Positions 2,139-62,066 of a stretch of 64,000 nt of DNA are shown here, one piece after another; within the stretch, counting starts at the first letter, position 1, and each line of letters starts with the position of its first letter. The notes beneath the pieces are model-generated. The model was not told where the DNA came from. It searched no databases and was given only the letters and a program-made list of their open reading frames with translations. Both the position numbers and the translations under genes were made by a program. This stretch comes from Microthyrium microscopicum (taxonomy: Eukaryota), in contig MU004234.1 in the NCBI GenBank assembly GCA_010405405.1, positions 354,993 through 418,992 of the forward strand, written 5' to 3'.

Positions 2139-3023
2139 CTATCTGTCTGGCCACAGTTGCTTGACCAATACCGAACTCAGTGATTCATCACTCTTCTCTA
2201 TGTACATTTTGGCCAGTCTTCGAGGAGCGGTGGTAAGGACAAAATGGATTTCGCCCGAAGGTGTGCTTAGGTTTGTAGTCGTCAGCATATCTCGGGGAAG
2301 TTCTAAGCAAGGCGTCGGATCCTTGGCTAGAAGGCGGATCATCTCGTTCCAAGTTTGAAGAAGTTGTTGTTTTGTGACTTCCCACATGAAGGCTTCGTCA
2401 AGATAGAAGTGGATTTGGATATGGCGTACGTTTGGAAGTAACAGAAGATAGCTGATGTTTCGCCAATTTCCTTCTTGTACAAGGCCGTGATCCATTTGGT
2501 AAATCGATTTCATCAAATTCCCATATCGAAGAAGAGTTGGGCAGGGAGCGAGGTGGCGATAATGGAAGTGGAACGTGTTCTCGCCGTATAGGACGTAGCT
2601 GGCCTCGTTGTGGATTGTCTTGCTTGTCTGCAGGAACTGAATGCAAGAGCCAAGTTCGCTGCGGCGGTGGATTCTACGGCGCTGTTTTCCGTAGTCGTAT
2701 TTATGACCGCAGCAGTCACATTCCTTGGAAGGATCCACAAATAACTCTCGATAGATCATCATTCGCGTTTCTCCAGGCAGCTCCATCAATGGGAAAGGCC
2801 CTTGATGTCGTCAGCAACTTATTTCCGAAGAGTGTGGTTAGAATGCCAGAGAGGGAGTCTTACCACCTGGTAGGTTCAGAGAAACAGGCTCTGGAGTGTG
2901 CTTAATAAGACCATCAAAGCTGTCATAGCTGTTATCGCTATCGTACATTAGGAAGCTTGATTCGGCGAAGTCGCTCGAATCATCGCTCGCATTGCTTAAG
3001 AGCAAGTTATCTTCAGTTGCCAT
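2139..3023 (-). CDS. F-box-like domain protein (paralogue 2), 2 exons
   Basis: Exon 1 MATEDNLL...NLPG (3023-2864); 63-nt intron 2863-2801 (GTAAG...GCTGAC...AAG); exon 2 GPFPLMELPGETRMMIYRELF...FLQTSKTIHNEASYVLYGENTFHF. TATATAAAT on the minus strand near 3195. Confidence 0.8.
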
Positions 3024-3887
3024 TTTGACAAAGTTGGAATCAATATGAGATTGCGTGGTGAGTATAAGTTCAAAATCGAGAATTGTGGATGCGAGGCAAT
3101 GGGTGTCGTGAATCGAGGCAATGGGTGTCGTGGAATCGAGGAAGTGGTTATTGGGGATGTGATGGAGATGAGGTCTCTTGGACACTGCCAGAAATTTATA
3201 TACGCGCAATTGTGGACGCTCACGTGCTGCTGGCCCGCGAAAGAACGCCTTCACTCCTTCGTTACTACCTGTTCGATTATTTCTCGAATGAGGTGGAGGT
3301 GGCTTTTGTCGGTCTCGCGGTCACTGATATCAACCTAAAACTCGACGGAGGAGCGATTGTTGAGGTGCGAAAGGAGCCTTTACTAACCAAAAACAGGCAG
3401 ATATATACTCGTCACCTCGCCATGGCGTCTTGCCTATCTGAGATATATTCGAAACAGGCAAGTTAAAGTGTGGATGAACTCATGTGGATAGAAACATGTA
3501 CGTGCCTCAAGCGAAGCACCCGAAGGGCTTTGATGCTCCGCTATTTAAACACGTCCAGACTTGCCTAATTTAATTACTGTGAGTTTGAAATCTTCTGAAT
3601 TGTCATTCGCTGTGTTTGCTTCTAACGTGAGAGATTTCAAGGACAGTTTTTGTTGTCAAAGTTTGCAGTGTTAGTCAACGCTAGAATGTGGCAGTTTATA
3701 TGGTCAGGGCGTGTATTTTCCAATTAACTTCTGCTTTGCCAGCAAACTCTGTTGTCCTCTCTAGGTGTCGACTCTATTCTTTGATGCGGTAGACGATTTC
3801 CTTCCTTCGGATTTGAACAGAACACAAGAACATTGCTTTCGCTTGAACAAAAGCGTGCTAATTGTCCCTATCCCTTGCGCCAGCCTA

Positions 3888-4319
3888 CTAACTCCCAATA
3901 GAGTACTGCTCTCGTATAACCCGGAAGATCTCAGTAGGTGTCCTGGCCTCCTTCAAGAGCAGAGCTTCCACTTTCTCAATCGTCGAGTACATGAACTTTC
4001 TCAAATTTCTTATCTCCATCTCATCATTCTCCCATGCTTTCATGGCGACCGTATATTCCCTCCATTCTTGATCCTTGTTCATGCGATCTACATGGCACCA
4101 ATAGATGGCATCTGGGGTGGGCTCAGGGGGAATAGGAGCCAGTGGAGCTTTTGGTTTTGAAGCATTGTGGACGTGGACTGGGTCTTGAGGAGCGTCGGTG
4201 GCTTGATGTTGGGAAAGGTCGATGTGCCGCTCAGTCTGACTGATGTGAAGATAAACCCTCAGCTGGCTGACCCACTCGCTCCAGTTTCCTTTTAGGACGA
4301 CGAGTCTACGTTCATTCAT
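3888..4319 (-). CDS. Small copia Gag N-terminal-like protein (copy 1, intact)
   Basis: MNERRLVVLKGNWSEWVSQLRVYLHI...P-rich linker...WREY...WENDEMEIRNLRKFMYSTI...TPTEIFRVIREQY. Aligns with copies at 7243, 7997 and 9495; the pattern resembles the N-terminus of fungal Ty1/copia Gag. Confidence 0.65.
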   Translation of the reverse strand: MNERRLVVLKGNWSEWVSQLRVYLHISQTERHIDLSQHQATDAPQDPVHVHNASKPKAPLAPIPPEPTPDAIYWCHVDRMNKDQEWREYTVAMKAWENDEMEIRNLRKFMYSTIEKVEALLLKEARTPTEIFRVIREQYSIGS

Positions 4320-5049
4320 CGTATTGGAGGTTTGAGATGTTTTCTTAGTCGAGTACTGCAATGGTTATGAGTAATGTTTCATTGTTTTGGCTGCTGGGTC
4401 TCATCTCTCCCTTAAATGCAGAATCTCGGCTCCGACTCCTAACTCCTTTCATGTGTTGTTGATTTGCCCATTCTCATTCTACCCGGGTCTTGTTGTTTGC
4501 TCCTCCAAAAGAAGCAACTCTTGACATTTCTGAAGATATGTTTGTCTTCAGCGTTCGTAGAGCTGTTACGGTGTGTCAAGAGAATATGGTCAAGGATGTC
4601 AATGCCACTGACCGACCGTTAGCTAAACATAGCATTTTAACTAGCGAATTGCTCCTTGGAGGCTTTAATAATTTAGCTTGTAGGCAATAAGCAAGACCAT
4701 TGTACTCTGATCATTTTCGCTGTCTGCAATAACACTTCATGAAGTAAGGCGGCTTTGATTTCCATCGCAATCAATTTTCTGCGGAATCATTTACGCGTTC
4801 GATGGTGAACCCAGCACTCGACATGCTTTGTAGCAGGTGGTAGACATCGTGGTCTATGGCAATGTTCGCACTGAACGATTAATCATTTTGAGGGTGTATT
4901 TTCTACATTTTGGTATAATACACATATCGGAGAAAGTTGTAAAGATCAACTTTTAGACTGGAACTAGATAAGTGCAGAACATACAAAACCATGGACCATG
5001 CTAGCTGAATCGACTTGCAGACTCTCATACCCATTTTCCTCTTTGTGCC

Positions 5050-6105
5050 TTAATAATCCTGTTCCTGGCTCTCTCGATATTTTTTGCGGTCGTCACTGCT
5101 GAACTCCTTAGGAGTACGGTAACTGGCTCGAGCTCCCAGCTTGTCCTGAGGGTAGCGGTCGTAGTGTTGTTCTGCCCATTTGATGTGTGGACATAGTATT
5201 GTGAGATCCTCCAGTCCGTAGTAGGAGAGTGTCACCTTCGTGCCTCCCATTCGATCGGCCTCAAAGGTGAAGAGAAGGTGTCCATATCTCGAGGCGGTTG
5301 CTAGCTGGTCCACGAATTTCTGAGGAAAGTCCTGGCGTGATCTTGGTGCTTTCTGCAGCATGTAGATGATGGCATTCCAAGTAGGTCTCAACTTTGACTT
5401 GACCCATTTCTTTTCCCACGTTCCTCCGAAGTGAGGAAATTTGACTTCGAAGTGACGCACGTTGGGCAACAGTAAGAGAAGTTGAAGACTTGGCCAGGCG
5501 ACGTCCTGGGTACGAGCATTTAGGAAGTCGGGTGTGCGGACTTTCTTGATAAGCTTGTTGTAGCGATGGATTACCATGCAGTTATAGTGAAGCTCATTAT
5601 CGAAAAACATAGTATTGCGACCGTAAAGCACGCTGGAGGCTTCTTCGTGGATTTTCTTGCTGACCCGAAGAAATTGAATGGCGTACTTGAGCTTCCCATG
5701 CTTGTAGTTGCTGTCAAGAAAGTGAGTGCAACAGAAACACAACTTGTCTGTCACAAATAGCTCTTCGTAAACCAAATTACGAATTTCACCAGGCAGCTTC
5801 ATAAACGGGAATGGGCCGCCTGGTAGGCTCAATGGGAAAGGTTTAGGCACGCGCTTGATGCGTATGGGATTGCCTTCATCGTCAGTCGCCTCGCTATCGT
5901 CCGTCAAATCCTCCTCGGCTGTGCTGTCAACGGTGGATGTTTCCACAATCTCTGCATTGTCGGTTGAATCTTGGGCTTCCAGGTTGGAATTGGACGCGTG
6001 ATTGATGGAGGGAGTGTCCTTGACATCGCTCTCGACCTCGTTCTCATCTCTAGCTTGGAGATTGTCAGCCAGAATAAGCTCTTGGATTCTCTCAAGAGTG
6101 TCCAT
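5050..6105 (-). CDS. F-box-like domain protein (paralogue 3), intronless
   Basis: Likely start MDTLERIQ at 6105; acidic N-terminus; LPGGPFPFMKLPGEIRNLVYEELF; FLRVSKKIHEEASSVLYGRNTMFF; C-terminal blocks shared with paralogues 1 and 2 (RY..L, LLLLPNVRH, WN). Confidence 0.8.
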   Translation of the reverse strand: MDTLERIQELILADNLQARDENEVESDVKDTPSINHASNSNLEAQDSTDNAEIVETSTVDSTAEEDLTDDSEATDDEGNPIRIKRVPKPFPLSLPGGPFPFMKLPGEIRNLVYEELFVTDKLCFCCTHFLDSNYKHGKLKYAIQFLRVSKKIHEEASSVLYGRNTMFFDNELHYNCMVIHRYNKLIKKVRTPDFLNARTQDVAWPSLQLLLLLPNVRHFEVKFPHFGGTWEKKWVKSKLRPTWNAIIYMLQKAPRSRQDFPQKFVDQLATASRYGHLLFTFEADRMGGTKVTLSYYGLEDLTILCPHIKWAEQHYDRYPQDKLGARASYRTPKEFSSDDRKKYRESQEQDY

Positions 6106-7242
6106 GATCGTAATGGTGAAAATTACGATGGGAAGTTCGAGCTGCGAAGGGAAATAGGAACTGCCCTGGCGATGGTAGTCAAAGTAACGTCTTCTGTGAT
6201 GCGTTAGAACGCCAACGTTCCATACAACGTGAATCAGATTACCAAGCGCTGTGAGAGCAACAAAGTGAGGATGCTGATGTTGTTGAGGCTGGAGAGGTTG
6301 CAGAGGCAGAATAATTTTGACGTGATGGAGGAATTCAATTGTTACTGAGTGCGAGAGTGCGTAGAACATGAAGTCACACCAGTGCCTACCTGCCTGAGCT
6401 CCTTCCTCACTACTGATTAAACCCGGGTCGTTGTTTCCTAAACTAGCAGTGGCAACTTTCCCAGCTCGTCAGTCGCGACTTGCCACTCCAGCTCAGGAAG
6501 TAGCAACCATCAACCATCTCATGGGACAGGAAGCCACGAGGACTCAATCGATTTTGTCTTTTCCTCCTTGTCGCTGCTCTGTCCAGTAGAAGACAAAATG
6601 GATGCCACAATCTCCTGAGCTATGTTGGCTCCCAGAAGATACACTCCTCGATAGAGAATTGTATTAACCACCGAGTGTGTAGGCAGTTCGGTGAAACATC
6701 CATAACGATGGGAAGTATAGCATCTGTTATTTACAAGACTCGATGGCAGCTATCATTCTTCCTGAGGGGAGCAGCTGTTATACATCTTGATATCAGCTGT
6801 CTCTCTAGCAGGAACTTACTTAGATTCAAAGAAGAATCAGAATTATACGTTCCCAGATTTGAGACTTGGTTTGGTAGACTCAATCCTTGCGGAGTATGCA
6901 TTGATTCGTCGGACTGTACTGACAAGCATGGAATCTGATGGTTAATGATATTCAATGCGAACAGGTTCGAGCCAGTTATTCTGCCTAGCTGCTGGAAGTG
7001 TCGTGGGTACCAAGAGCACATCTGGCCATACCTCATCTGCCGGTACGGACCATCGTTATCTAGGTACTGCGACTTAGTATGCGCTTAAAGCCCAGGTATC
7101 TGCTCACAGGGCCACAACTGTTGTTTCTTTTATAATTCGAGATAGCCGTTTTCTCTTCTTTGGACTCTCTTCGACCCCGAGCCTCTCACTTGCAAGGCAT
7201 TGTCGTACTCACAACCCTTCAATATCTAGAACTCTAGAAATC

Positions 7243-7736
7243 ATGTTTAACCTGGCTCTTGGTCCTGTTCCTGCGTTCTTACCACTTATCCTCCTGGCAA
7301 ATGATGGACGCAACTGTTCTGAGTGGCATCGACAACTTCAACTCTACCTTCACATCAACAAGCTCAAAAAGTATATCCACCTATCAGCTCAAACAGCAGA
7401 TCACACGGATCCAATTGCTACTCACAACGCCTCGAAGCCTACAAAGCCTGCTCTTACCTAAGCGGGTTGTATGGTTATGATGCACATGAACAGATCCAGA
7501 TGACCGTCCTGCTGAGGTGGGAAGAATACAAAGCCGTTGTAAAGGAATGGGAACATGAGGAGGCAAAAATCCAGAAATTGACCGAATTATTATACACTTC
7601 TATCGATATTCAGCTCACAAAACTCCCTACATTTATGGAAGCAACTACACCCACCAAGATCTATATGCAGGCGTACGCTATTTCAAACCGTGAAAAAGGG
7701 GGCTCGGTGAGGGCAGTTGTCAAGGAAAAGAATTGA
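7243..7736 (+). pseudogene. Gag N-terminal-like paralogue (copy 2), frameshifted
   Basis: ORF 7243-7461 (LILL..NCSEWHRQLQLYLHINK..HNASKP) stops at TAA. Homology continues in another frame (WEEYKAVVKEWEHEEAKIQKLTELLYTSI..ATTPTKIY) to 7736. No convincing intron at the junction. Confidence 0.7.
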
Positions 7737-7996
7737 TGAGCTATTGCCCCTATAACTCGCGAAACTCTATTATGGCTTTCGTTCAGGATAGTTCTGCGGG
7801 TGCTAATGTCTAGTACTCGATTAGAGCCAAAAAAGTACGCCCATTAAGTTCGCCGAATTATATCTTCTGAAAAACGTTTTTGCTTCTGCTCTCAATTTTT
7901 TACCTCTCTCACCTCAAGGCTGTCGTATATCGTATATATATATAATATACCGAACACACTCACAGAGCTTCAAGACCTGGAGTCTTCAACACCACA

Positions 7997-8502
7997 ATGT
8001 CTCATATCACTCCCTTCTCTCCACTCATTCTCCTAGAAAACACCAACTACAATGAATGATATAGCCAGCTACGTCTCTACCCGCAAATCAACAAGGCTAG
8101 AAAATACATCCACTTGATTTCGACCGCGAAGATCCAGCCGATGACCCAGTCAACATCCACAACGCTTGGAAGCCGAAACCCCCAGTTCTAGACCGTCGCC
8201 TGTACACGTCGAGACACTGTACACGTTTGCAACTTGAAATGACACAAAGATGGAAGGAATACGAAGTTTCGATGAAGGGCCGGGAAGTTGTGGAAGTGAA
8301 GATCCAGAAATTGACCGAGTTTTTGTACGCCACTATCAACATCAGCTTGAGGAGGCAACTCTTAAAGAAGGAAGGATTGACACCCACTGAGATATGCCTG
8401 CAGGCCCGCGGGTCGGCAGCGGTCCTCGGTGTTGTCCAGGCGTACAGAGGATTCGATCAGAACGGGGCTTCGGTCAAAGCAATTGCTAAGGGAGGTACGT
8501 GA
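7997..8502 (+). pseudogene. Gag N-terminal-like paralogue (copy 3), nonsense mutation plus frameshift
   Basis: ATG 7997: MSHITPFSPLILLENTNYNE*YSQLRLYPQINKARKYIHL, with TGA at 8057-8059 replacing the conserved Trp. Frameshift near 8115, then DDPVNIHNAWKPKPP...WKEYEVSMK...KIQKLTEFLYATI...TPTEI. Confidence 0.75.
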
Positions 8503-9341
8503 TTTGTTCCAAGTGACCACGACTTGCGCCGTCTGCTACAGTTTTTTGTCACCTAAATCAGGGTTCCAGGATGGTTTCGATCTAGAAGGGGAATTTGAAT
8601 CACGTTATCGAAGCTAGAATCTTTCATATGGTATGATTGGCGAGAGCCATCGTCGTTGGTGCCAAAGTGCTGTCCGACGGCCTCAAGATAACTGCGCACT
8701 TCTGCACTATAGGTTGTCGATATTCGACAAATGCCAACATCAGCAGATCCAGAATAAATTCAGCTTACCATTCTCTCGTAGACATATGGAATTCACGATC
8801 ACATGGCTAAGAATAACTTTTCAATTACTGCGATTAATTCGCCAACGCCGTTGTTCAAACCGCAATGCCCATATTTGTCAGGAGTTATTTCGGGTAGTTA
8901 AAGAGAGCCAAAAGGACTGCCATAGGCTTTTTTAAGCCATATATCTAAGTCCCCTTGGAGTTGTGCATACTATTACCTAGTTGTACTGTCAAGTTCGTGG
9001 AAAAGTACCCGGATTTCTGCGACTTGTGCGCGTAGAGTAGCCGCTCATTTCTTTGTGTTGCCGTTGTAGTCAAGATGTTACTAGCAGTGCTTCGTCAGGG
9101 AGACAATTCGTTCGGCCTCAACTTCCTCCCGTAATCAAAAACGAGGTAGCAACTGTCCTAAGGATTCATTGTGACTGCCAGAACTACCTCCACAAGATTC
9201 GCACCTCGTTTATAACAGGCAGTGAGTACACAGGCGCGACCTCTGGAAATCTGTTTCTAGCAAGAGTGGCATAATGCCCACTATATAAATCAATCTCTAA
9301 TTCGCTGTCATTACTCCTCCTCCTCTTCACAACACCACCAA

Positions 9342-9492
9342 CCATCGAGTTATTTCCAAACCATCGAATTACTTCAAAGCTTTCGAACTACTTCCAAGCC
9401 ATCGAATCAATATCAAGCCGTCGAACCAATCCAGGCCATCGGGTCAGTTCCAATCCGCCGAATCAGTTGCAAATCATCGAATCATCTCCAAA
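9342..9492 (+). repeat. Degenerate tandem array, 8 x ~19 bp (approximate consensus CCATCGAATYANTTCCAAR), between TATA box and start codon
   Basis: Units start at 9342, 9361, 9380, 9399, 9418, 9436, 9455 and 9474; TATATAAA at 9282-9289; ATG at 9495. Confidence 0.85.
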
Positions 9493-9494
9493 CC

Positions 9495-9926
9495 ATGGCG
9501 GATACTGGCATCTTGCCACCGCTGGTAGTTCTACGGGGAAATTGGGACGATTGGTTGCACCAGCTAAAGCTCTACCTTCACATCAACAAAGCTAGACAGT
9601 TCATCAATCTTTCGACAATTAAAACCTACGCCCGAGACCCAATCCATGCTCACAAAGCCTCACAGCCAAAATGTCCAATCCTAGCTTCCTCTGGACCCAT
9701 CTCTGGTGAGGCAGACTTCAATGCCTTCCAGCTTGGTATGGTCCAGAAGTGGAAGCGATACGAGGTTGCTATGAAAGAATGGGAGAAGGATGAAGCAAAA
9801 ATCGAGAACCTGACAAAATTCCTCTACATGACTATCTGCAAAGACCTTCTGAGCTGTGACAAGTTCTTGGAGGCATCTACACCTACTGAAGTCTTTCTGT
9901 TAGCATGGGCCAAACGCAAATATTAG
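9495..9926 (+). CDS. Small copia Gag N-terminal-like protein (copy 4, intact, 143 aa)
   Basis: LVVLRGNWDDWLHQLKLYLHINKARQFINL...DPIHAHKASQPKCP...WKRYEVAMKEWEKDEAKIENLTKFLYMTI...ASTPTEVF; TATA box upstream and a good start context (AACCATGG). Confidence 0.7.
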   Translation: MADTGILPPLVVLRGNWDDWLHQLKLYLHINKARQFINLSTIKTYARDPIHAHKASQPKCPILASSGPISGEADFNAFQLGMVQKWKRYEVAMKEWEKDEAKIENLTKFLYMTICKDLLSCDKFLEASTPTEVFLLAWAKRKY

Positions 9927-10663: not shown

Positions 10664-11893
10664 ATGGCCAGTTCGAACCGAATCCTCATAATCGGTGGTG
10701 GAATAGGAGGTCTGGGATTAGCTCAAGGGCTTCTCAAAACCAACATTCCATTCCGCGTCTTTGAGCGGGAGTCGGCACTAAACTTTCGACCTCAAGGCTA
10801 TCGAGTTCGGATCGGACCTGATGGACAAGAGGCTCTTCAATCCCTCCTAGCACCTGCTCTCTACGCCCGGCTAGTCAATAGTCTTCCACCGAATGCACCA
10901 GGCTTTGCTCCAGCCGCTCATCTGGACGCGCTGACGGGTGAAGCTCAAGCAAAACCTGGTAGTGGACCACCTCCGTCTGGTCTACCTGGAGCTCAGAACA
11001 CTGAACAATTGAACGCGGACCGTGGTGTACTGCGTCAAGTTTTGATGCAAGGACTGGAAAATCATGTCGAATTTGGTAAGGACTTCAAAGACTATGCAAT
11101 TACACCAAGAGGAGTGATAGCACGCTTCAGTGATGGAAGCGAGGAAGAAGGTGCTTTACTTGTGGCAGCGGATGGCATAAGATCGCGGATACGAAAACAG
11201 TTTCTACCGTCATTCAGCCTCATGGACACAGAAACACGAATTATCTACGGCAAAACAAGTTTGACTTTGGACCTGGAAAATACATTGAACGCTAGCGCTT
11301 TGAACGGACTGGTATTAGTGAAAGATGCATCTCAAGAACATGCGCTAGCTTTATTACTCGAGACAATGCGTTTCAAGGACAATGAATATCGGAAGGATGC
11401 CCCAGAGGACTACATTTACTGGGCTCTCATGGCGAGAAAAGAGCGTTTCCTAGCAAGCACCACAGAGGAGGAGATACTCAAGCTATCGTCCGACCAGGCT
11501 GCCGAATTAGCTCGAACGATTACTGCGACATGGGACGAATCTTTTCGGCCGCTTTTCTCGGCTCAAAGTATTGCTCACACATCGATTTTGCGCGTTCTGT
11601 CGATAAAGCCGGAAATAGCAGTCTGGAACTCTTCGCCTTACGTCACATTGATTGGAGATGCTATTCATCCAATGTCACCAACAGCAGCAGCTGGCGCAAC
11701 GACCGCACTCCGTGATGCTGCAGCTCTAGTGAGATGTCTAAGCGAGCATGACATCAATGTAGAGGCGGCCGGTGAGTATGAGCAGCAGATGAGGAAGTAC
11801 GCTGGAGAAACGGTGGCGAAGAGCGGATGGGGAGGAAAACTGCTTTACGGTCAATGGTCCTTCGATGACATGGAAGAGGTGGAAGAAGATTGA
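10664..11893 (+). CDS. FAD-dependent monooxygenase (group A flavoprotein hydroxylase)
   Basis: IIGGGIGG Rossmann motif, RPQGYR, LLVAADGIRS (DG motif) and VTLIGDAIHPMSP (GD motif); 409 aa, intronless. Confidence 0.92.
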   Translation: MASSNRILIIGGGIGGLGLAQGLLKTNIPFRVFERESALNFRPQGYRVRIGPDGQEALQSLLAPALYARLVNSLPPNAPGFAPAAHLDALTGEAQAKPGSGPPPSGLPGAQNTEQLNADRGVLRQVLMQGLENHVEFGKDFKDYAITPRGVIARFSDGSEEEGALLVAADGIRSRIRKQFLPSFSLMDTETRIIYGKTSLTLDLENTLNASALNGLVLVKDASQEHALALLLETMRFKDNEYRKDAPEDYIYWALMARKERFLASTTEEEILKLSSDQAAELARTITATWDESFRPLFSAQSIAHTSILRVLSIKPEIAVWNSSPYVTLIGDAIHPMSPTAAAGATTALRDAAALVRCLSEHDINVEAAGEYEQQMRKYAGETVAKSGWGGKLLYGQWSFDDMEEVEED

Positions 11894-34885: not shown

Positions 34886-37800
34886 CACTCCTGCTATGGG
34901 AGGATATTCTTCAAATCTTTGCTCTAACGAGCTCTTTGCCTATTTAAGAATATTGGTATTTATTTATTTTAATAATGCTATCTTTATAGCCTTCGTGTAG
35001 CGTAATATAGTAGTGTAGCTACGCGAAGGGGCTATATATAGCAACCTTTACGTAGTACCTTTAAGAGACGATACCTATTAAATAAGCGCGTTATTAGTAG
35101 TTTAATACGCGTTTCTTATTAATACTAACTAATAGCTATATAATGCACTAAAATCTAAAATTTTCTAGGTACGTTTTAGTTAGGTAAAGCTCTATACTGC
35201 TTTTAGGGTTTTGTTAACTTAAAATAGGTAGTAAATAAAATAGAGCCCTTAATTTATATATATCTAAGTAAAGACCTAGGACTTAAGCTAGCTATTAGCT
35301 ATTCATAAGTATAAAAAGAATAGTTAGGTATATATATAAAATAGATAGAATAAAATACTTAGTATTATATAGCTATAATATATAATTCTCCTCTTTATTA
35401 GGTACTTTATTATTATTACCTCTCTAAGATATGCCTCTAAAAATTACTATACCTTTATAAGATAAGTAGCTAAAAGAGATAGCTTAAAGCTCTTCTAAGG
35501 TAAAGCTAAAAGGTAAGTGTAGTAAAAAGTCCTTCTTCTCCTCTAAGGCGAAGCCCTAGGATGATAGTAGTAAAGTACTATTATCCTTTAAAACTATAAA
35601 TCTCTCTTAGGAGGTTAAATTAGAAAGCTTAGAAGATAAATAGCTAGAAATATTAGATAACTTAGACTCGTAAGAGTAAAGTATTAGTACAATAAATCTT
35701 AAACCTAGTATCTCTTTTAACTAAGACGATAAAGTTAATAAAACTTAAATTATAGAACTTACTTAAAAATAAGTTACTAATAAGGAAGAGTAATAGCGCG
35801 TAATAGCTACTACTAAAGAGGCTGCCTTTAAGGCTAAAAAGAAGCTTAATTAAAAGGAGCGCTAGAATAAGAAAAATAAGGGCCTTAAGGATAAGGTAAA
35901 GAAATTAAAAATTATCTTTAAAGAACTTAAGAACTAGAAAGTGCTAAAATAGCTAGAAGTAAAGTACTAAAAGGCTATTATACTAAAAGTAGTAACGCTT
36001 ATAGATAAAACCTAGGCTAAAGATATAATTATGACTAATAGCTCTAATAATAATAAAGAGGAACTACTTACCTCTAACTAGGAAGTAGCTTCTAAACCTA
36101 CCTCTTTCTTCCTTAGAACGTCCTTAACCTTCTTCGTCTAATTATCCCCTACTGCGGCTAAAGATCTTCCTAGAGGATCTTTTATACTAGCGAAGATAAT
36201 AGATAATAAGAAGAAGCTAAGATAAGATAGCTAGCTAGCTATTTCTTTTAACGTTAAGAGGTAAGCTTCCTTAAGTAATTTAGCTATTAAGTAGAGGAAG
36301 TCTACTCTAGTTAAGAAACCTTTAGGTTCGTTAAGGAATAATAAGGATTACGAACTAGAGTAGTAGATTAGAGTAGAAGTAGGTTTTCCTATATAAATTT
36401 ATAATAAGGATACTAAATAGGATATAGTAATAGATGCGTTAGCTAATACTAGCCTCTTACTCCTTAAGGATATATTAAGAGGTCTATAAGGGGTAAGCTT
36501 ATACTATAGAGATATAGATAACGCTCTAAAGGTTATTAAGAAAGGCTTCCTTTTCTATAGCTTCTTTATAGCTCTATACCTTTTTAAGAAAGAGGGAGCT
36601 ACTACTTTTTAAGCTATTAATATTCTTATTAACCTTACTAATAGAGCTATCTATACTAGGTTAGTAAGCCTAAAGTAAGTAAAGGTAACTTTATTTAGCT
36701 TCTAGTTTATAAGAAGAGAATATTAGGAAGTTAAGAGTAACTATATTATTATAGATTTTAAAGAGCCTCTAGACTTTACTAAAACTAATTTTATAGTTAC
36801 TAATTCCTTACGTAAAGAAAAAGGTAAACTATTAGAATTAGGACGCTTTAAGCTTTTAGTAGAGAGATTTAATACTATGTACCTATATAAGATTTATAGT
36901 AGGGCACTAGAAGATAAAGAAAAGCGTTATAGCCTAATATACTATTACTAACTAGTACTCTATATAGTAGTAATAGTAAATTTTAGGAAAAATAAACTAC
37001 TTTATATAGCTCTCTTGTCTATTATTAAATAAGTAGCCTTAGAATTATGTCCTTAAATATATAATCTATTTAAAAGTCTACTAGGTTCTAGTAAATTATA
37101 TAATTTTTTAAGGTAAAGTTAATAGATATATTATTAATATAAGAATCTTATTTAACTTTAACTTATATTTTAGAATACTAAATGTCCTTCCTTTAAGTAA
37201 GGCTTAACGCTATATACTATAATAGGTATACGTCTATAGCTACTATAGTTAGGAAAAGAATAGTAGACTAAATTACTTATAATAAATCTATAACCTAAGT
37301 AGCTAATAAGGAGTAAGTATATACTAACTTAGGTAGAAGACTACTAATTTATAGACTTAAAGCCTAGGGGCTTATATTAATAATAAGCAATATCTATCCT
37401 CTATTAGCTTATAGATCTTAGAAACTATAGCTAGAACGTTAGACTAAAATACTTAAACGCTCTTATAATAACCTATATTATAATATTATTAGAGAAGACT
37501 AGAACTAGTCCTTACTTACTATTAATTACTATAAAGAATAGCTACCTAAGATTTTAGGGGTTAATATAGAAAAAGAGTTTATTTTATAAATTACTCCTCT
37601 AAGTATGACTTTAATTAATAAATAGAGATACTATAATAAAGGCGTTATTACGTTTTCTTTTAGCGTCTTCTCTAAATAGGAAGAGTTAGATACCTTAGTA
37701 GAATAAGTAGATTTACCTACTAGAATAAATTACTAAATAACTTAAAGCTAAAGCTAGGTACTAAAAGACAAAACTAATTCTAATAATAAGGGCGCGAAAG

Positions 37801-40800
37801 AAGAGATAAAGGCGCTAGAAGTAGCGGATAGTTAAATCTTACGCATAATATTACGAATTAACTAAATCTATATTAGAGATAACTAGATAAGGTTCTTAAA
37901 GGATTAGGATATAAAAAAGGTAGACAAGTTTACTAACTACTATTCTATCTTACTAATTCTATAGGTTTCTTTAGATATACCTTATAGTCCTAGAAGATAG
38001 AGAATATAACCTTAATTACTTAAAGTATAAAGAGTTTATAAGGCTATAGAAGCAATATTTTTTTACTACTCTTATAACGACTTAGTAGAAGATTAGGTAG
38101 AGGTTAAAAACCTTATTTAGGAGTATATAAAACTAGAATCTATAAAAATAAGAACTAGTAATTACCTTTAGAGTTTACTAAAACGTAAGTAAGAAAGGCT
38201 AACCTAGTAAAGGGCTTTTAGCTAAAGGGATAATATAGTATAGTAGCTAGAAGTAGTTAATCTATAGATAGCCTACTTTATAGAATAGAATTACTTTAAC
38301 TATTACTATAACGCTCTAGTGAAGTATATACTATTAGATAAGATACTTATAAAGTATTTTTATAAATATATAAAGGCTTATTATAACTTAAGTATTATAG
38401 AACTAAGTAATATAGCTAGAGACTTATAAATATTAACTAAAGATATTATAGATATTATTAAGGATTTCTACTTAGGGCTATTCTAGTAGAGAAAGTACTT
38501 ATTAGAAGCTTAAGACGTAATATTAAGTTTTATATTAGAGATAATTAGCAAAAAAATAAGTAAGAGTATAATAGCCCCTATTTTAGTTTAGGAGGTATAA
38601 TATATAATACAAATAATAAGCCTAGGAACCTTGCCTAAGATTAATAGCATAATTATAGAGTTTTATAAAACTTTTCTTCCTACTAAGCATTAACTTGTTA
38701 ATAGAAGTAGATAGAACTTAAAGGACCTTTTAGAGGATAAAGAAGAAGAACTAGATAGCATTCTTACTATTCTAAAATAGGTATTTAACTATATTCTAAG
38801 TACTTATATTCTCCTTCCTAGATAGCTAGAAGGTATACTTATACTCTTATTTAAGAAGAGTTCTAGAATGAAGCTAAAGAACTACTAGCTACTATTAGTT
38901 ATAAATATAGACTATAAGCTATTTACTTATATTATAAAGAGTAGACTTAATTAAGCTCTATTAGATATTATTAGACAATATTAAATAGCCTTCCTATTAG
39001 GAAGACTAATTAATAATAATATTTAGATAGTATAGATGCTTCTTATAAGGTAAAGGTATACTTAAGAATATAACAAAGATAATAATTTAGCTATTTTATT
39101 CCTAGACTAAGAGAAAGCTTATAATTAAGTAGACTATAAATTCTTATAGAAGGCTCTACTAAAGTTTAGCTTTAGTTAGGATTTTATTAATTTATTAATA
39201 GCTTTATATAAGGAAGCTATACTCTTTACCTATATTAATAGGTATAAGAGTAATGCTATCCTAGTTTAGAGTAGAGTAAGATAAGGTAACCCTTTAAGCT
39301 ACCTACTCTTTATAGTTGCTATAGAGGCTCTAGCTTAAACTATTCTACGTAATAAAGATATTAAAAGGATAAATATAGGACTTTAGTTTTCTTTAAAGTT
39401 AAGAATATATATAGATAATACTTAGATAATTATTTAATCCTAATTTAAGGTAGAAACTATACTTACTATGCTTAAAGTATATAGTAACGCTACTAGTACT
39501 AAAGTGAATTAAGAAAAGTTCTATCTTATGCTTTATATAGAGATTAACTTTAAAATATTAAATATAAAGACCCTTAAGGAATTAGAAGCTTATAAATATT
39601 TAGGCATCTTTATTAGCATTAATATTAAGAAAGTAATTATAGACTTCTAAGCTATTATTACTAATAAGATAAGAAAGTCTATAGATATTTAGCTTAAAAA
39701 TTATATATCTCTTAGGGGTAGGATCTTAATTACTAATTTAGTACTAATGTCTATAATTTAGTATAGCGTTTAGTTCCTTAATATCTCTACTAAGAGTTAG
39801 AAGGAGCTAAATAGATAGTACCTAAGAATAATATAGGATAATAAGCACTAAGGATTAATTTAAGCTCTAAGTACTTATAAAGAACTAAAAGATAAAGGCT
39901 TATACCTCTAAGATCTAGAATCTATTATAGACGCTTTAATACTAGCTATAATAACTAGAGTAGATACTTATCTAAAGCTCCTATAAGCTAGTATAACTAA
40001 TACCTTAATTATCTATTATTACACTTAGGCTAGCTAGATCTTTCTTAAGCTACTTACTTACCCTTAGTTCTAATACTATAAAATAAAGGTAATTATAAGG
40101 GATCTATCCTTTAAGCTAAAGCATGTTTAAACTAGATAGTAAGCTCTTTATAGAAGTGCTAAAGATAAACGCTTCTTAGAAAGTAGTATAATAGCTATAG
40201 TAAATATATATAGCGTAGATTATATACTTAATACCTATTTATAGTTTTATCTTTACTACCTCTAACTATAAAGCATAAGACGTTAGAATTTAGTAAAGTT
40301 CTAAGGCTATTAGGCTTATAGGATAAAGTACTTAAGGAATTATTATATCCTAAGAACGCCTAGTAGCCTAGCTTATACTTATTTTAATACTTTAGGCCTC
40401 TCTAGGAAAGAGTATATTAACTTCTAGATAAAGATCTTTACTATAGTTGCTAATCTTTCTCTAAGGTAGTAGTAAGCTCTAAATAGGGAGCTAACTAACT
40501 AGCTTAATAAACGTAAAGTATCTACTCTAAAGGAGAGTAAACTTATGCTATAGGATATATTATAACCTCTATTTTAGGTCTTATTCTTATAGGCATATAA
40601 GGCTATACTTTAGACTTAACTTTATAGAGATAAGTATAATTATACTTTAAAGGTAGGAGATATTAGTAACGCCTATTGCTACTTAACTAGTAAATTACTA
40701 AAATTAGGCAGGATTTAGCGCTTATTAAGAACCTACCTAATAGTCCTTAAGGCCTCTAACCTCTTCTAGAGAATACTCTATAATTAAGTTATTACTAAAA

Positions 40801-41659
40801 TAAAAATAAAGAAATAGACAAAGAATCTAGATAGACTTATATACCTAATTTATAATAAGGACTTATTACTTAAATATATTTAGGTATAATACCTAGTTAT
40901 AAGAGTAGTCTAAAGGTATGTCTATTATATTCTATAGAACTTAAGAGTCTCTAAAGAGAAGAGTATAATATTTAATACTCTTATAGAGTTTATAGCTCTT
41001 AGCCTCTTAGGTCTCTTTAAAAAAGATACTACTTTTAATAGAAGCTAGAGGATAATCTTCTAGCTTATAGCTTAGTCTCTTTAGAAAGTATATTTAAAAT
41101 ATTACTTTAAGAAGAAAGAGAATACCTAGTAGTACTTACTTACTATATCTAACTTTTTCTTAGCTATAATGCGCTAATAGATAATAAAGGAATAAGTAGT
41201 AGCTATATTAGTAAAGTTCCCTAGTTTAATACTAAATCTATAGAACTTTAAAGCCTTATAGCATTAGAAGCTAAAGGATATAAGAGTAACAACTAGACCT
41301 TAATATCTTATAGACGTTTATAAGGACATTAGATTAGGCTATTGCTTAGAATTAAGTAAAGATAAAGAAGAGGAAGGAGCCTCTATCTTAATAGAGAGCT
41401 CCTTAATAGATAACTTAGGGAGCGAAAGCTTAAGCTCTAGCTTATCTTAAAGAATATATATTAGACTTATTAAGATATTAGTAATTAAGAAGTATAATAA
41501 TGGAGTCCTTTTAGATATCTCTTTAGTAAATTTTAAATTTAATAATAGGATAAGCGTAAAGTATAGGTTTAATTCCCTATTATTAATATATAGTTGCCTA
41601 ACGAACTCTTCTAAGATACGCCAGAAGGCTGCTACTAAAACAAAAATGATTTCTTATTA
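34886..41659 (+). mobile_element. RIP-inactivated non-LTR retrotransposon (LINE, L1/Tx1-like), apparently full length
   Basis: De-RIP reading: GGDWN endonuclease motif (~37490); NYRPLSVMNADYKL (~38880); ILFLDQEKAYDRV (~39095); SGVRQGDPLS (~39270); YADD (~39408). Flanked by the direct repeat ATTAGTGCGCTATA at 34872-34885 and 41660-41673. Confidence 0.85.
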
Positions 41660-41779
41660 ATTAGTGCGCTATATAGAAAGATTTTTTAAATTATACCTCT
41701 CTTATATTAATCGTCTCTATATTAATCGCCTTAATGAAATAAGAACTAATATTCTGCAGACAGCACATTTATTTTCAAA

Positions 41780-42200
41780 TTTTGAGAGCCATGTATTCCG
41801 CAGCATCAAGAGCAGATGCTCTTCTTTAAAACTCAACCAAGCCAACTTTTTCAACAGTGGCATACACGTCGACAGCTAAAGGAGAAGTTAACGATGTTTC
41901 AAACTCAAGTGGCTGAACTGACTTTGGGCCCATTGAGACACAAGGCTGTCAGCAGTATGATGTTCGCTTATTATGACGGCAAACCTTTGAAAATATCGCG
42001 AGGGTTGTTCAAAGATGGCGCCTACAACTTTACCCAAGTCACCGATGTAGACCATTGGTAGATTGTCGGTACCATTCTCGGGAAAAAAAGCTCTCCATTG
42101 CAAACCGTTATTTGTTTTCATTTGCGATGTGTCAAAAATCCCTTATTGAACTACATGTTACGCATATACCGGTTTGGGCCTACCAACTACTAAGCAATGG
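41780..42200 (-). pseudogene. NmrA-like (atypical SDR) gene fragment
   Basis: LPMVYIGDLGKVVGAIFEQPSRY...HTADSLVSQW resembles the NmrA/HSCARG C-terminal region; in-frame TAG upstream; N-terminus not evident. Confidence 0.45.
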
Positions 42201-42653
42201 AAAGAATGGCTGGTCCAAGGCGCTAGTTAAGCTATAGTTGCTTGATTTGAAGACTTACCTAGGTTAATGCTGGTAGCTTTGGCTATGTTAAGATACTCGT
42301 CCTTATTATAGACTAAATAGAATCGTCGACATCTAATGGTTATACCTGCATCCTCTTTTATGTTTGCTAAGCAACAGCAAATTAGTTGCTTGGTCTGATT
42401 CATGTTTCAGTTTCTTTCCGGTAGCACTGCCACTACAATCTGTTCAAGAGTTTGCCGAAGAGGATTTGGGGGCCTTGAACATGATTGGATGCAATGACAG
42501 CTTCGCCCCAGTCAACCTGCCGCTACCTGAGAGTTATCTCAGTGTACTCAGCCCTTCAGAGAGGTGTATCTAACTCTATTGGGTTAGATAGTATTCTATC
42601 TCCTTAACAACCAATAACAATACTCCTAAATAAATACCTCTCTAAGGGTCTAA

Positions 42654-43273
42654 GAGGGACTTCTGCCGTTTATACTACATTAGCCTTAGCTAAAATGTAT
42701 ATTTTACCTTTTTTAACCCCTTCTTTCATAACTTATAATATAATAACTAATACATAATATAGCTTAAAACTTAGGCCTTATAATCTCCTTATTCTAAGCT
42801 ATTTATCTATATTAAAATCGTTTTTGTGCCCTCTCTAGTTATCTTATAATCTCTTATTAAAGTTTAGTATTAAAAAAGTTAACTTTTTTTTAACTTAGTA
42901 TTACTATATAACAAAAGGTTATAGAAAAAAAAGAACGAATTTTATAGATATATTAAGATATAATCTTTCTATAGTAAGAGTTTTAAGATATAAGATTACT
43001 AAATAGACTTAAATATATATATTAAAAACTATTATACTTTTTAAAATAGTTAAGCTAGACCCCCTTTTAAACTATAAAACAGGGAGATTTCTATAGAGTT
43101 CCTTAGTAAATATTAAAGCTTAAAAATTAAACTATATATAGATATGCTTTAAAATTGTAGCCTTTTATAAGAAAATTACTTATAGCTATTCTAGTTGTTA
43201 AGATATTTAATAAATCGTGAAGTAGGATTTTTTCGTTAAGGCTGATATAGTGTAAACGGCGGAAGTGTCTCTC
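42654..43273. mobile_element. Non-autonomous TIR DNA element (MITE / Mutator-like), RIPped
   Basis: Left end GAGGGACTTCTGCCGTTTATACTACATTAGCCTTAGCTAAAA matches the reverse complement of the right end (GAGAGACACTTCCGCCGTTTACACTATATCAGCCTTAACGAAAA). Flanks AGGGTCTAA / AGGCTCTAA (9 bp, 1 mismatch); AT-rich interior. Confidence 0.7.
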
Positions 43274-46465: not shown

Positions 46466-47559
46466 TGTCACGGGAACCAAACCCTAACCCTAAGCACGAA
46501 CCACATGGCCCGTGCCCCTAGAGGACATATCCTCCACCAGAGTAGCAGTAGAACAAACCTTAAAGTTTATTTCTTAATTATATTACTATACTACTACTAT
46601 ATTAGCTCTATAACTATAATATAAATAAACTTCTACTATAATTATATAAGTAAGTTAAAATTTTACTTTTATAAAAAAATTTTTATCTTACGCGTTTAAT
46701 AGTAAGAAGACTAGACTTATAGCTCTCTAAGTATATAGACTACTTACTTATTCCTTATTTACTAGAAAGCTAGTATAATTAAAATCTAATAGACCTAAAA
46801 CTATAAATCCTAATCTTAATACCTTATTACTAGTACTAAGACTTTATAAAGCCTACGCTAGTAGAGGCTAGTCCTACTAATATTATTTACCTCTTACTTT
46901 AGAGTAAATAATTTAATAATTTCTTACTATATACTCTATATTATCCTTATAATATAGCAAACTATTATCTTATAGTTATTTATAAGATATTTATAATAGT
47001 CTATATACTTTACTACTACTAGACTTAACTTAGCTAGTTATAGTAAATATTTACGATCTAGATTTATAGTAGCAATATAAGACTATAATAGAGATTAAAA
47101 AAAAGAAGAAGAAGTAAGCGTTATAGAAAGCTCTAAAGAAAAAGAATTACCTATTAGTAGAAGGTTTATAAGATAATTTATAAGCTCTAATAAATAACTT
47201 ATTATAGTTAGAAATAGAGCTACTATATAGGGGTAGAGATACTTAAGAAACCTTATAGAATTTAGAGTAAGAGTAAGAAGGTAGTAAGTACTATAAGCGC
47301 TTACTATATATAGAAGATTCTAATATTAAAGATAAATTAAAATTACTAGAGAGTAAGGATAGCTTAGAAAAAGAGTAAGAATAAGGATATAAAAAGTACT
47401 ATTAGCGTAATTTAGGTCTTTACTATATTAGCCTTAGCTAAGAAGAAGGTATTTTTGTTAGCTACAAAATTAATAGTAATATTTACTTAGTTTATCTAAG
47501 TTTAAAAAAAGATTTAATATAAGATATTAAGGAGGCGCTAAAATACTAGTAAGAAATTT

Positions 47560-50500
47560 TATTACGAACCCTTATGGACTTACTATAGAGGCATAGGTAT
47601 TTTACTACCTCCTTACTTACTCTACTCTTATAGTACGCTATAGGAAGGCTCTTTACTAGTAAACTACTAGGTTAATATAAATAGTGCCTACCCTTTACTA
47701 TAATAAGATAAAGCTAAAATAGAGCTAAGAATAAAAAGGAGAGGTAGCTTTACTAAAGAGAAGATAGAAAGGAGTATAAGTAAAGAGATAAACTTAATCT
47801 CTTAGAAGATTAAGTATTAGTCTTATCTTAATACTAGTTCTTAAAATCTATTTTCCTTACTTTAAATTATCCTTTATAATTCTAATACTTTTTAATATAC
47901 TATATAGTAATAAGCCTAATAGATTCTTATAATAATAAGGAGTATAAGGAACTTTAATAAAGGCTAAAATAGAGATAAAAATAAAGATAAAGACCTAAAT
48001 AATAACTTAGATAACAACTTAGATAATAACTTAAGTTAATATAATAGCCTACTACTACTAATAGACCTAGAAGCTACTTTAGCTACCCTTTATATAGTAA
48101 TAGCTTAAATTAATAAATAAGAATAGATACGTATAGCTAAAACGTAATAGCTTCGTAATAAGATTATAGCCTTATTATAAACCTTATAATAGAATCCTTC
48201 TTCTCCTTTTTAACTAAAAGAACTAAAACTTACTAACCTTATAGTTCTTTAATATAAGACTTAATAAGAACTTATTAACTAGACTATAGGTATAGAAAAC
48301 GTTTTCTATTTAGTACTCTCTTAATTTACTATATAAGAAAGCTATATTAAATAGGCTAGCTAGTTTATAAGTCCTAATCTATAAACTTAATAGAACCTAA
48401 AGAAGAAGAAGATTAAGCTACTAACTTAGACTTAGGAGAAGTTTATAGAATAGCTTTAATATTAATATGCTTACTTTACTATAGCTAAACTTTTAGTTAC
48501 TAAGAAACTTAAAGAAGCTAAGTAGCGCTCTACCTAGACTTCTATAAAGTTTAATACTTACTTAAACTTATTAGAGACCTAACTTAGTATTAATATAACT
48601 TATAAAGAAAATAAATAATACTTAAAATTCTTTACTAAGCTAACCCTAAAACTATAGAAATAGATTAAATTAATAAAGTATATCCTAACTACTAGACTTA
48701 ATATAGTTAATACTACTAAATGCTTTTAGTAGATTACTTATAAGTACTTATAAAAAGATCTATTAGGTAACGTTAATTCTTAACCCCCCTAATTAAATTA
48801 TAATCTATAAGGTAGCTAAGGTAAATAATAAGGGCGTAAAAGTTATATAGAATATATGCTATTAACTTACTTATTAGTAAGTATAAAGCCTAAAAAAGAT
48901 AGTAAAACGTATAAGAGAATTACCTATTATAATTATAATTTATTTAGATATTATATAAATAAGTATAATAAGCCTCTAAGAGGCCCTTAGGCTACTTAAG
49001 GATAAGAAAGATTCTTAAGATATAAAGGCTAGAGAAGGAACCTAAATACTATCTCTTTCTTATTAAAATCTAAAACTAACCTAAGAAAAAAGTAAGTATC
49101 GTAAGAATTAAGAACCCTATCTTTATAATACTAGATTAAACTATAGGAGTATAGATTTAGATAATAGCTAATCTTTCTCTTACTATAGAAAACTAATTTA
49201 TAAACGTTTTCTTAAATACTAGTAGTTAAATTAATATTATTAATAAATAACTTACGTAACGCTATAGCCTTAAGAAAGTAACTATAGAAAGTATCTAAGC
49301 TATAAATTTTACTAATAATATAATAAAAAGTAAATATTATAATATATATTAGCTACGTTTTTATTATAAGGACTCTTCTAGTATCTATAAGAATATTAAA
49401 TACTATTTCTTTTCTTTTAATTAGACTAAATATATTTACTCTATAGTATAAGAAACTCCTTTATAAGAGAAATATAATATTTTTATCTACTTAGAGTAGA
49501 AGAAGTAGCTATTTAGGAAAGAGAAGCTAAAATATAAAATTATAGATTAAAGTATATTTAAGGAAGGGCTATAAGAATATAGTAAGGTATTTAAACTAAC
49601 TATAAAATTTAATAAGTACCTATACTTAAATAATAAGAAAGTAGAGATCTCTAGTATTAGCTTTAAGCTAAGCTTATAAGTAAATATTAATCTAGAGAAT
49701 AGACTACTATAAGAGCTATAAGATTTAGCCTCTTAAGTTAAGGCTAGGGATAAGAATAAACTTATCTCTAAAGGTATTAAATATACTATTAAGATAACTA
49801 TAGACCCTTCTTTTAGACCTATTTATAACTTATTAGTAACGAAACTTAAGGCACTATAAGAATACCTTAACTTAGTCCTTATAAAAGGCTAAATTTAGGA
49901 ATTAACTAGCTTAGCTAAAGTACTTATATTCTTTATACCTAAAAAGGATAAAGAATTATAACTTTACGTAAATTACTACCTACTTAATATAGTTACTATT
50001 AAGAACTATTACCTACTTCCTTTAATAAGCAAGATATTAGATTAACTTAGTAGAGTAGTATACTATACTAAAATAAACCTTAAGGATGCCTATACTTAAA
50101 TACTTGTTAGAGAATAAAATTAATAAAAGATAGTATTCTATACTTAGTATAGATACTATAAATACTAAATTATACTTTTTAGACTTACTAATACTTTAAC
50201 TATATTCTAAGCCTATATTTATAAAGCATTAGTAAGACTCTTAGATATTATCTATATTATTTATCTTAATAATATTCTTATTTTCTCTAAAACGTATAAA
50301 GATTACGTTTATAACGTATATACTATATTAGAATACTTACTAGCTACTAAGCTTTATACTAATTCTAAGAAGTATTAATTTTTTACTAATAAGGTAGAAT
50401 TCCTTAGTTTTATAGTCTCTATAAAAGGAGTAAAAATAAATTTTAGTTAAGTTAAGTTTATTACAAAGTAGCTAAAACTTAAGAGCTATAATAATATATA

Positions 50501-61992: not shown

Positions 61993-62066
61993 AGAGGTTA
62001 AGAGTTTAGAGAGGTTAAGAGTTTAGAGAGGTTAAGAGTTTAGAGAGGTTAAGAGTTTAGAGAGGT
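61993..62066 (+). repeat. Tandem repeat, 4+ copies of 17 bp AGAGGTTAAGAGTTTAG, in the 3' region of element A
   Basis: Exact copies at 61993, 62010, 62027 and 62044, plus a partial copy. Confidence 0.9.

Follow-up and report, generated by a model that had tools for sequence, protein, structure and literature searches.

Four gene copies with a predicted copia-type capsid fold in Microthyrium microscopicum: a candidate domesticated Gag family

How should one read four small, related coding units that lie close together in a fungal genome and resemble the front part of a retrotransposon Gag protein, with no other part of a retrotransposon beside them? The question is raised by a 64-kb stretch of DNA from the filamentous fungus Microthyrium microscopicum (assembly GCA_010405405.1, contig MU004234.1, positions 354,993 to 418,992), which we call the window and on which all positions below are given; the four paralogues are labelled c1 to c4. 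A first-pass annotation had proposed a captured Gag fragment, possibly one that restricts transposons. We conclude that the copies probably make up a host gene family that stems from the N-terminal domain (NTD) of a copia-type Gag capsid. In what follows we discuss the copies, their predicted fold and self-association, their surroundings and their relatives, and weigh other explanations along the way.

The family is clearly delimited within the window. A family profile (hidden Markov model, HMM) was run, all filters off, on the 1,257 stop-to-stop open reading frames (ORFs) of at least 25 amino acids (aa) found in the six frames of the whole 64 kb. It matched four places only, with E values of 2e-59 for c4, 3e-56 for c1, and 4e-31 to 8e-24, plus 7e-4, for the fragments into which c2 and c3 are split; the best unrelated ORF reached E 2.5. 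The ORF list and the protein and DNA alignments likewise place four related units where the first-pass annotation had put them (Table 1), and the shared motifs it had listed are seen in the family alignments as NW..W..QL..YL, DP...H.A.KP..P, W.EY, KI..L..FLY.TI, and TPTE. Of the four units of ~140-165 aa that it described, however, only c1 and c4 are intact, at 143 aa; c2 has a frameshift, and c3 a stop codon, a frameshift, and lost residues. The proteins of c1 and c4 are 44-46% identical, and the start and stop positions of these two 143-codon ORFs are homologous.

The two broken copies differ in how far they have gone. In c2, the first frame ends at a TAA (7459-7461) and the homology resumes in the other frame from 7461 (SGLYGYDAHEQIQMTVLLRWEEY...), which points to either recent pseudogenisation or an indel in the assembly. 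In c3, the in-frame TGA stands where the NW..W motif has its second conserved W, and W and LH residues are replaced elsewhere. Rescue by an intron was considered for both and dismissed, as the gap in c2 is shorter than 30 nt with its two frames adjacent, and as the conserved helix-1 codons of c3 come after the stop, with no GT donor before it.

The link to Gag comes mainly from the predicted fold. In a ranking of 48,161 PDB chains, the Drosophila Copia capsid takes the first and second places both for the AlphaFold model of c4 and for that of P0004, an outside relative (see below) that is only ~25% identical to it. For c4, 86 residues align within residues 3-89 of the Copia chain, at 6% identity in the structural alignment, and the predicted model thus has the capsid NTD fold of the solved Copia capsid. 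Retroelement and retroviral capsid domains fill 23 of the 50 best rows for c4 and nine of the top 10 (they include PEG10, MLV, dArc1, RSV, Arc, PNMA2, HIV, and Drt2), and retroelement capsid chains make up only a tiny fraction of the PDB. The NTD of Copia Gag spans residues 1-90 and the C-terminal domain (CTD) residues 91-186, according to the available part of the structural paper (PMC11835246). Since the match runs from 3 to 89, the modelled c4 would represent a whole Copia-type NTD and nothing else. A capsid CTD was not found: nothing follows the NTD-like part in the window copies, and residues 186-239 of P0004 (which align to Copia residues up to 141) have no counterpart in the six-frame translation of the window. 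What c4 has in addition, compared with the Copia NTD, is a proline-containing insertion of ~40-50 residues, placed between helix 1 and helix 2, the long one. The Copia capsid structures were released in 2025, after the AlphaFold2 training data were collected, and the c4 model can therefore not be copied from them. In our view, the weight of these models lies in that release date and in the same specific structure coming first twice.

Predictions of self-association point in the same direction. With three copies of c4, the prediction scored 0.49 (0.55, 0.36, and 0.49 in the separate runs) against 0.16 for the best control. In the calibration, 21 of 30 proteins with a solved structure of paired identical chains reached the mark that it passes, as did 0 of 23 solved as single chains (17/29 and 0/30 for eukaryotes), although three copies were used here and two in the calibration, and passing may reflect memory of solved capsids. 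The three-copy runs agreed in at least 77% of their contacts, with a predicted local distance difference test (pLDDT) score of the partner of at least 73. The confident contacts form one interface, between residues 22-32 of one copy and 104-125 of its neighbour, which is found again in the following pair. On these models, we read it as a head-to-tail interface of the ring-closing kind; in Copia capsids, each capsomer has NTDs at its centre and CTDs at its periphery (PMC11835246).

Traces of Gag are fainter at the level of sequence. The sole family signal in Pfam is a match of the N-terminal part of c2 (residues 21-41) to DUF4219, with an E value of 0.047-0.095 and 12.9-13.9 bits against a cut-off of 27, which falls on the homologous first helix (NW..W..QL). 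Searching the N- and C-terminal segments separately gave nothing beyond it. In the language-model clusters of the ESM-Atlas, where scores below 0.9 are to be taken as leads only, the nearest named neighbours of c4 carry Retrotran_gag_3/DUF4219, DUF4219, Retrotran_gag_3, and Retrotran_gag_2, at 0.85-0.86. For P0004, all named rows with a family among the matches listed are Retrotran_gag_2, Retrotran_gag_3, or DUF4219, at 0.82-0.89. The likeness to the N-terminal region of copia Gag, which had at first been proposed from the motif pattern, is thus backed by the fold ranking, the Atlas neighbours, and the weak DUF4219 match, but not by any significant profile match.

If the copies go back to a Gag gene, what is left of the element around them? 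Nothing that we could find, and the stand-alone state claimed at the outset (no long terminal repeat [LTR], zinc knuckle, or pol) is borne out by the repeat analysis, the translations, and the neighbouring ORFs. DNA similarity among the copies amounts to 60-75%, is confined to the coding parts, and stops at the ORF borders. Between 3000 and 11000 there are no LTR-like repeats, as the longest direct-repeat families measure at most 53 nt and lie inside the coding similarity. The CCHC knuckle (pattern CX2CX4HX4C) is absent from all four translations, which were read directly, and no pol lies beside the copies, the neighbouring long ORFs being 2EXR/DUF7730-like proteins and a flavin adenine dinucleotide (FAD) monooxygenase.

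The copies also show no signature of repeat-induced point mutation (RIP), as the first-pass annotation had noted along with their normal GC content, and the dinucleotide indices agree. TpA/ApT is 0.53-0.75 and (CpA+TpG)/(ApC+GpT) 1.08-1.55 in the copies, similar to the housekeeping genes of the window; the customary RIP thresholds are 0.89 and 1.03. In the AT-rich blocks (35-43 kb and 46.5-62 kb), the two indices are 1.76-1.81 and 0.07-0.30, respectively, and none of the copies sits in these RIP-like blocks, as judged with the family HMM over the 64 kb. The blocks themselves (35000-43000 and 46500-62000) have a GC content of 0.23-0.28, with repeats driven to 22-28% GC, and the extreme indices of RIP. 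That the true transposons of the window are RIP-saturated, as had been stated, is right as to the RIP-type indices of these blocks, but their identity as transposons is unconfirmed: of their 73 ORFs of at least 40 aa, none matched Pfam. Judging by sequence, the original elements appear to be past recognition with a Pfam-type search.

How the copies have evolved was approached with Nei-Gojobori counts on the six paralogue pairs. Synonymous differences (pS) between the copies are saturated at 0.62-0.84, compared with 0.35-0.43 for nonsynonymous ones (pN). The ratio of nonsynonymous to synonymous divergence (dN/dS) is 0.36 for c1-c4, 0.31 for c1-c3, and 0.18 for c2-c3, dS being undefined by saturation in the other three pairs; being taken among paralogues with saturated dS, the ratios say little on current selection on c1 and c4. 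Because pN lies well below the saturated pS and dN/dS below 1, the protein appears to have been constrained during most of the divergence, with c2 and c3 breaking late. The birth-and-death evolution that had been suggested agrees with two intact copies, two recently broken ones, and a dN/dS below 1. Going by its sequences, the family probably turns over in this manner, with c1 and c4 intact, c2 freshly frameshifted, and c3 a transcribed pseudogene.

Relatives outside the window are scarce. An exhaustive HMMER search with the family profile against 1,835,955,588 cluster representatives (E at most 0.001) recovered five proteins, three of which are the window's own products (P0001-P0003). The other two, P0004 (239 aa, E 2.8e-9) and P0005 (138 aa, E 5.4e-7), are each a 'hypothetical protein' on a contig of ~1 kb. 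A word-indexed protein search matched one of two candidates of near length (the query itself) and 0 of 87 longer ones; with the family alignment, three of 1503 candidates matched, namely a window ORF and P0004 and P0005. With two outside relatives among so many representatives, the family appears from its sequences to be either very narrowly distributed or very fast diverging.

Taken as a whole, we consider the Gag-NTD origin of the family likely, and we infer it from the fold, the predicted self-association, and the sequence traces; several points weigh against this reading and keep us from putting it more strongly. Pfam returned no family for c1, c4, and P0004, and a single unrelated weak match for P0005 (at E values of up to 1 or 10). 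The DUF4219 score on c2 is far under its gathering cut-off, and none of the Gag families DUF4219, Retrotran_gag_2, and Retrotran_gag_3 reached or exceeded the Pfam gathering score. Searched with the profile, the PDB sequences yielded just two matches, both irrelevant (E 0.21 and 0.79). The comparison with Gag and capsid structures for which the first-pass annotation had called came out negative in Foldseek, where nothing reached E 0.001 or better in the PDB (both models) or in BFVD. Only one of the five AlphaFold2 models of c4 is confident, at a pLDDT of 78.9, the other four having 62.5, 54.4, 54.0, and 51.5, and the c4 and P0004 models share one alignment of seven rows, of which three are fragments. 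To these must be added the Atlas scores, the calibration, and the saturated dS discussed above. Two of the four copies are broken, and at least part of the family is hence dispensable. Finally, Pfam revealed no intact copia element, the supposed source or target, among the ORFs of the AT-rich blocks in the window.

Much of this would also suit a young, fast-evolving, lineage-specific family of helical proteins with no tie to Gag, whose likeness to a capsid is that of any small helical bundle. The lack of a significant profile match, the empty Foldseek results, the fragile c4 model, and Atlas scores below 0.9 all fit such an origin, which we nonetheless regard as unlikely, because three different methods agree on the same family. 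A generic bundle would have to put the Copia capsid at rank 1 and 2 for two members of ~25% identity, fill 23 of the 50 best c4 rows with capsids that are rare in the PDB, and cover nearly the entire NTD with its 86 residues, all with structures that postdate the training of AlphaFold2. It would also have to account for named Atlas neighbours that are copia Gag families throughout and for a DUF4219 match on the homologous first helix. Far less probable still is neutrally decaying copia debris with two frames open by chance. Two copies are indeed broken, the region borders RIP-like repeat blocks, and a dN/dS below 1 could arise if the divergence had occurred in elements that were still active, but the latter needs four independent insertions with the same borders within 6 kb. 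Against debris speak the missing remnants of LTR, pol, or knuckle beside any copy, the identical homologous borders at which all four are cut, and the absence of a RIP signature in a genome whose repeats have fallen to such low GC. Moreover, two frames of 143 codons have stayed open after saturating synonymous divergence, the 733-nt spacing between c2 and c3 is like that of a tandem duplication, and transcript-like contigs cover parts of c3 and c4. Tandem expansion of a captured Gag NTD as a host gene family, as opposed to decaying element copies, would account for this arrangement.

Transcript evidence comes from one public sequencing run, X1, of which the kind was guessed as RNA and the depth is low; it contains 14% of the sampled words. 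The run is RNA-like because one of its contigs is spliced, skipping a 63-nt GT..AG intron (2800-2862) of a minus-strand neighbour gene. Contigs of 100% identity cover 7886-8095 and 8073-8231 of c3, i.e., its leader and broken N-terminal part, and 9675-9850 within c4, making c3 a transcribed pseudogene. No contig of this low-depth run covers c1 or c2, a gap that says nothing on their expression. In the contig-covered stretch of the minus-strand neighbour gene at 2139-3023, the upstream leader contains a 22-23-nt tandem repeat (3085-3141; 2.5 units, 88% matches).

Two public gene models draw the copies into larger products. At 7707-8100, P0002 (202 aa) splices the C-terminal part of c2 to that of c3. 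As a real gene it was rejected, since the contig 8073-8231 runs unspliced through the proposed acceptor at 8100/8101; RNA-like contigs also fall inside the proposed intron, and P0002 probably arose as an artefact where two pseudogenes lie side by side. In P0003 (469 aa, 2139-4319, minus strand), c1 is spliced from 3893 to 3182 across an intron of 710 nt and so continues into the 2EXR-like gene downstream; the donor of this intron, GTTAGT, overlaps the c1 stop codon. The second intron of this model is the 63-nt one that the RNA-like contig confirms. As the contigs end at 3130, the 710-nt joint is neither shown nor excluded.

What could a free capsid NTD do for the host? On the origin that we favour, an ancestral Ty1/copia-type Gag would have lost its capsid CTD, nucleocapsid (NC) knuckle, and pol and gained the insertion between helices 1 and 2. 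The following scenario is built by analogy with known restriction factors. The free NTD would keep the capsomer-forming surfaces, self-associate head to tail, and co-assemble with the Gag of resident copia-type elements, thus entering nascent capsomers. Having neither CTD nor NC, such a decoy could block lattice growth or RNA packaging and act as a dominant-negative poison of virus-like particles. Genes of ~430 bp may be too short and too fast diverging for RIP, which would allow tandem expansion in a RIP-proficient fungus, and an arms race could be the source of the rapid divergence, the gene birth and death, and the near-absence of relatives. That the NTD restricts elements as a decoy in Gag particle assembly is a tentative proposal, which we infer from these analogies and would not call likely. 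More speculative again is the full form of the idea, a first restriction system built from the capsid NTD alone, with decoys acting on the capsomer-centre contacts, tandem RIP-evading genes of ~430 bp, and an arms race.

About as much weight goes to the possibility that a domesticated Gag NTD serves an ordinary cellular process, as a self-associating or peptide-binding module comparable to SCAN and Arc, and has no effect on transposons. The evidence of fold and self-association is the same for both, and RIP already silences repeats in this genome, so that a dedicated Gag decoy is perhaps needless. The copies are also interleaved with three 2EXR/DUF7730-like paralogues, and in a variant of this explanation c1 would be exon 1 of a fusion gene that continues into the 2EXR/DUF7730-like protein downstream, following P0003 with its GTTAGT donor over the c1 stop. 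However, no RNA contig, up to their end at 3130, contains a joint between c1 and the 2EXR-like gene, and an intron of 710 nt is long for a filamentous fungus. The extreme lineage restriction, fast divergence, and pseudogenisation, too, resemble a conflict gene more than a housekeeping module. Both roles presuppose the Gag-derived host gene family that we favour, and Table 1 collects its copies together with the other features of the region.

Table 1. Positions of the capsid-like copies and of nearby features in the 64-kb window
Feature	Position	Strand	Description
c1	3888-4319	minus	intact 143-aa ORF, ATG at 4319, TAG 3888-3890; predicted capsid-NTD-like protein
c2	7243-7736	plus	two overlapping frames, 7243-7461 then 7461-7736; single frameshift at ~7459-7461
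c3	7997-8502	plus	pseudogene; in-frame TGA 8057-8059, frameshift near 8120-8128, conserved residues replaced
c4	9495-9926	plus	intact 143-aa ORF, first in-frame ATG at 9495; protein modelled
TATA-like string	~7139-7146		upstream of c2
TATA-like string	7933-7950		upstream of c3
19-nt tandem repeat array	9340-9496	plus	~8 units with a consensus close to AACCATCGAATTACTTCCA; a period of 38 was scored as well
2EXR/DUF7730-like paralogues	587-1282, 2139-3023, 5050-6369	minus	interleaved with the capsid-like copies
Polyketide_cyc2-like ORF	1-489	plus	E 6e-4, under its cut-off; flanks the cluster
FAD-binding monooxygenase	10664-11893	plus	E 5e-12; flanks the cluster

The TATA-like strings that the first-pass annotation had noticed ahead of two copies are present in the sequence, at c2 and c3. 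The 19-nt array ends exactly at the c4 start codon and is unlikely to be coding because its period is not a multiple of 3; from its position it may be a leader (5' untranslated region) or promoter element of c4. Two of the three 2EXR/DUF7730-like genes are 33% identical over 283 aa (E 1e-37), and the whole region from 0.5 to 10 kb resembles a nest of duplicating genes that are specific to this lineage. Housekeeping genes, namely MAT1, alpha-mannosyltransferase, and glutamate-cysteine ligase, lie beyond the cluster.

How does the family compare with known systems? With copia Gag it has in common the first helix with its N(W/Y)..W motif, weakly matched by DUF4219, and self-association, which is predicted for c4. 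With the Copia capsid (PDB 8VVW and 8S41) it shares the predicted all-helical fold, with NTD residues 3-89 as the best match. In contrast to copia Gag, it lacks the capsid CTD, the NC zinc knuckle, pol, and LTRs, and in contrast to the Copia NTD it has ~50 extra residues between helices 1 and 2, including the conserved DP..H.A.KP..P motif.

The closest functional parallels are the yeast proteins Ty1 p22/p18 and Drt2, which the accessible text of PMC10951436 describes as CTD-based decoys. Like them, the family would be a stand-alone fragment of a Ty1/copia-superfamily Gag that is kept and transcribed as a host gene and is a plausible assembly decoy. The differences are nonetheless considerable. 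The yeast proteins consist of the capsid CTD and are recognisably similar to their target element, whereas the family has only the NTD, and no element related to it could be detected. The function of DRT2 was shown by retromobility assays; for the family, function is proposed on the strength of sequence and models.

Among fungi, Wang and Han (2021) described three co-opted gag genes, all single copy, of which Crtg12 and Crtg13 are copia-derived and come from Dothideomycetes (PMC8321522). As given in the accessible portion of that paper, these two were found with the Pfam HMMs of the GAG-polyprotein clan (E at most 0.1, DUF4219 excluded), share synteny across fungal families, and have a dN/dS below 1 over 217 and 293 aligned sites. 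The family would be alike in being a copia-type gag kept as an ascomycete host gene, with a dN/dS below 1 in those paralogue pairs where it is defined. It differs in escaping such Pfam HMMs and in consisting of four tandem copies of an NTD-only protein of 143 aa, a distinction drawn from the published description of Crtg12 and Crtg13. The better-known animal examples Arc/dArc1, PNMA2, PEG10, and SCAN derive from Ty3/gypsy-type Gag, again according to the accessible part of PMC8321522. Most of them retain both lobes or the C-lobe, and capsid formation persists in several, as opposed to the single NTD predicted here. In the open papers that we consulted, no family that is both NTD-only and derived from copia gag is described for filamentous fungi.

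The domesticated Gag genes known so far come for the most part from animals (Arc, PNMA, PEG10) and yeast (DRT2), along with three single-copy cases in fungi. If our reading is true, a filamentous ascomycete adds to them a copia-derived, NTD-only, and tandem-amplified family that is invisible to Pfam-based screens, and such screens would therefore undercount Gag co-option. Should the family turn out to be unrelated to transposon control, it would still provide a small capsid-lobe module, predicted to self-associate, for other uses. If, on the other hand, the decoy mechanism is true, capsid-based restriction may use the ring contacts of the NTD as well as the CTD, and this fungus would have a protein-level defence against transposons alongside RIP.

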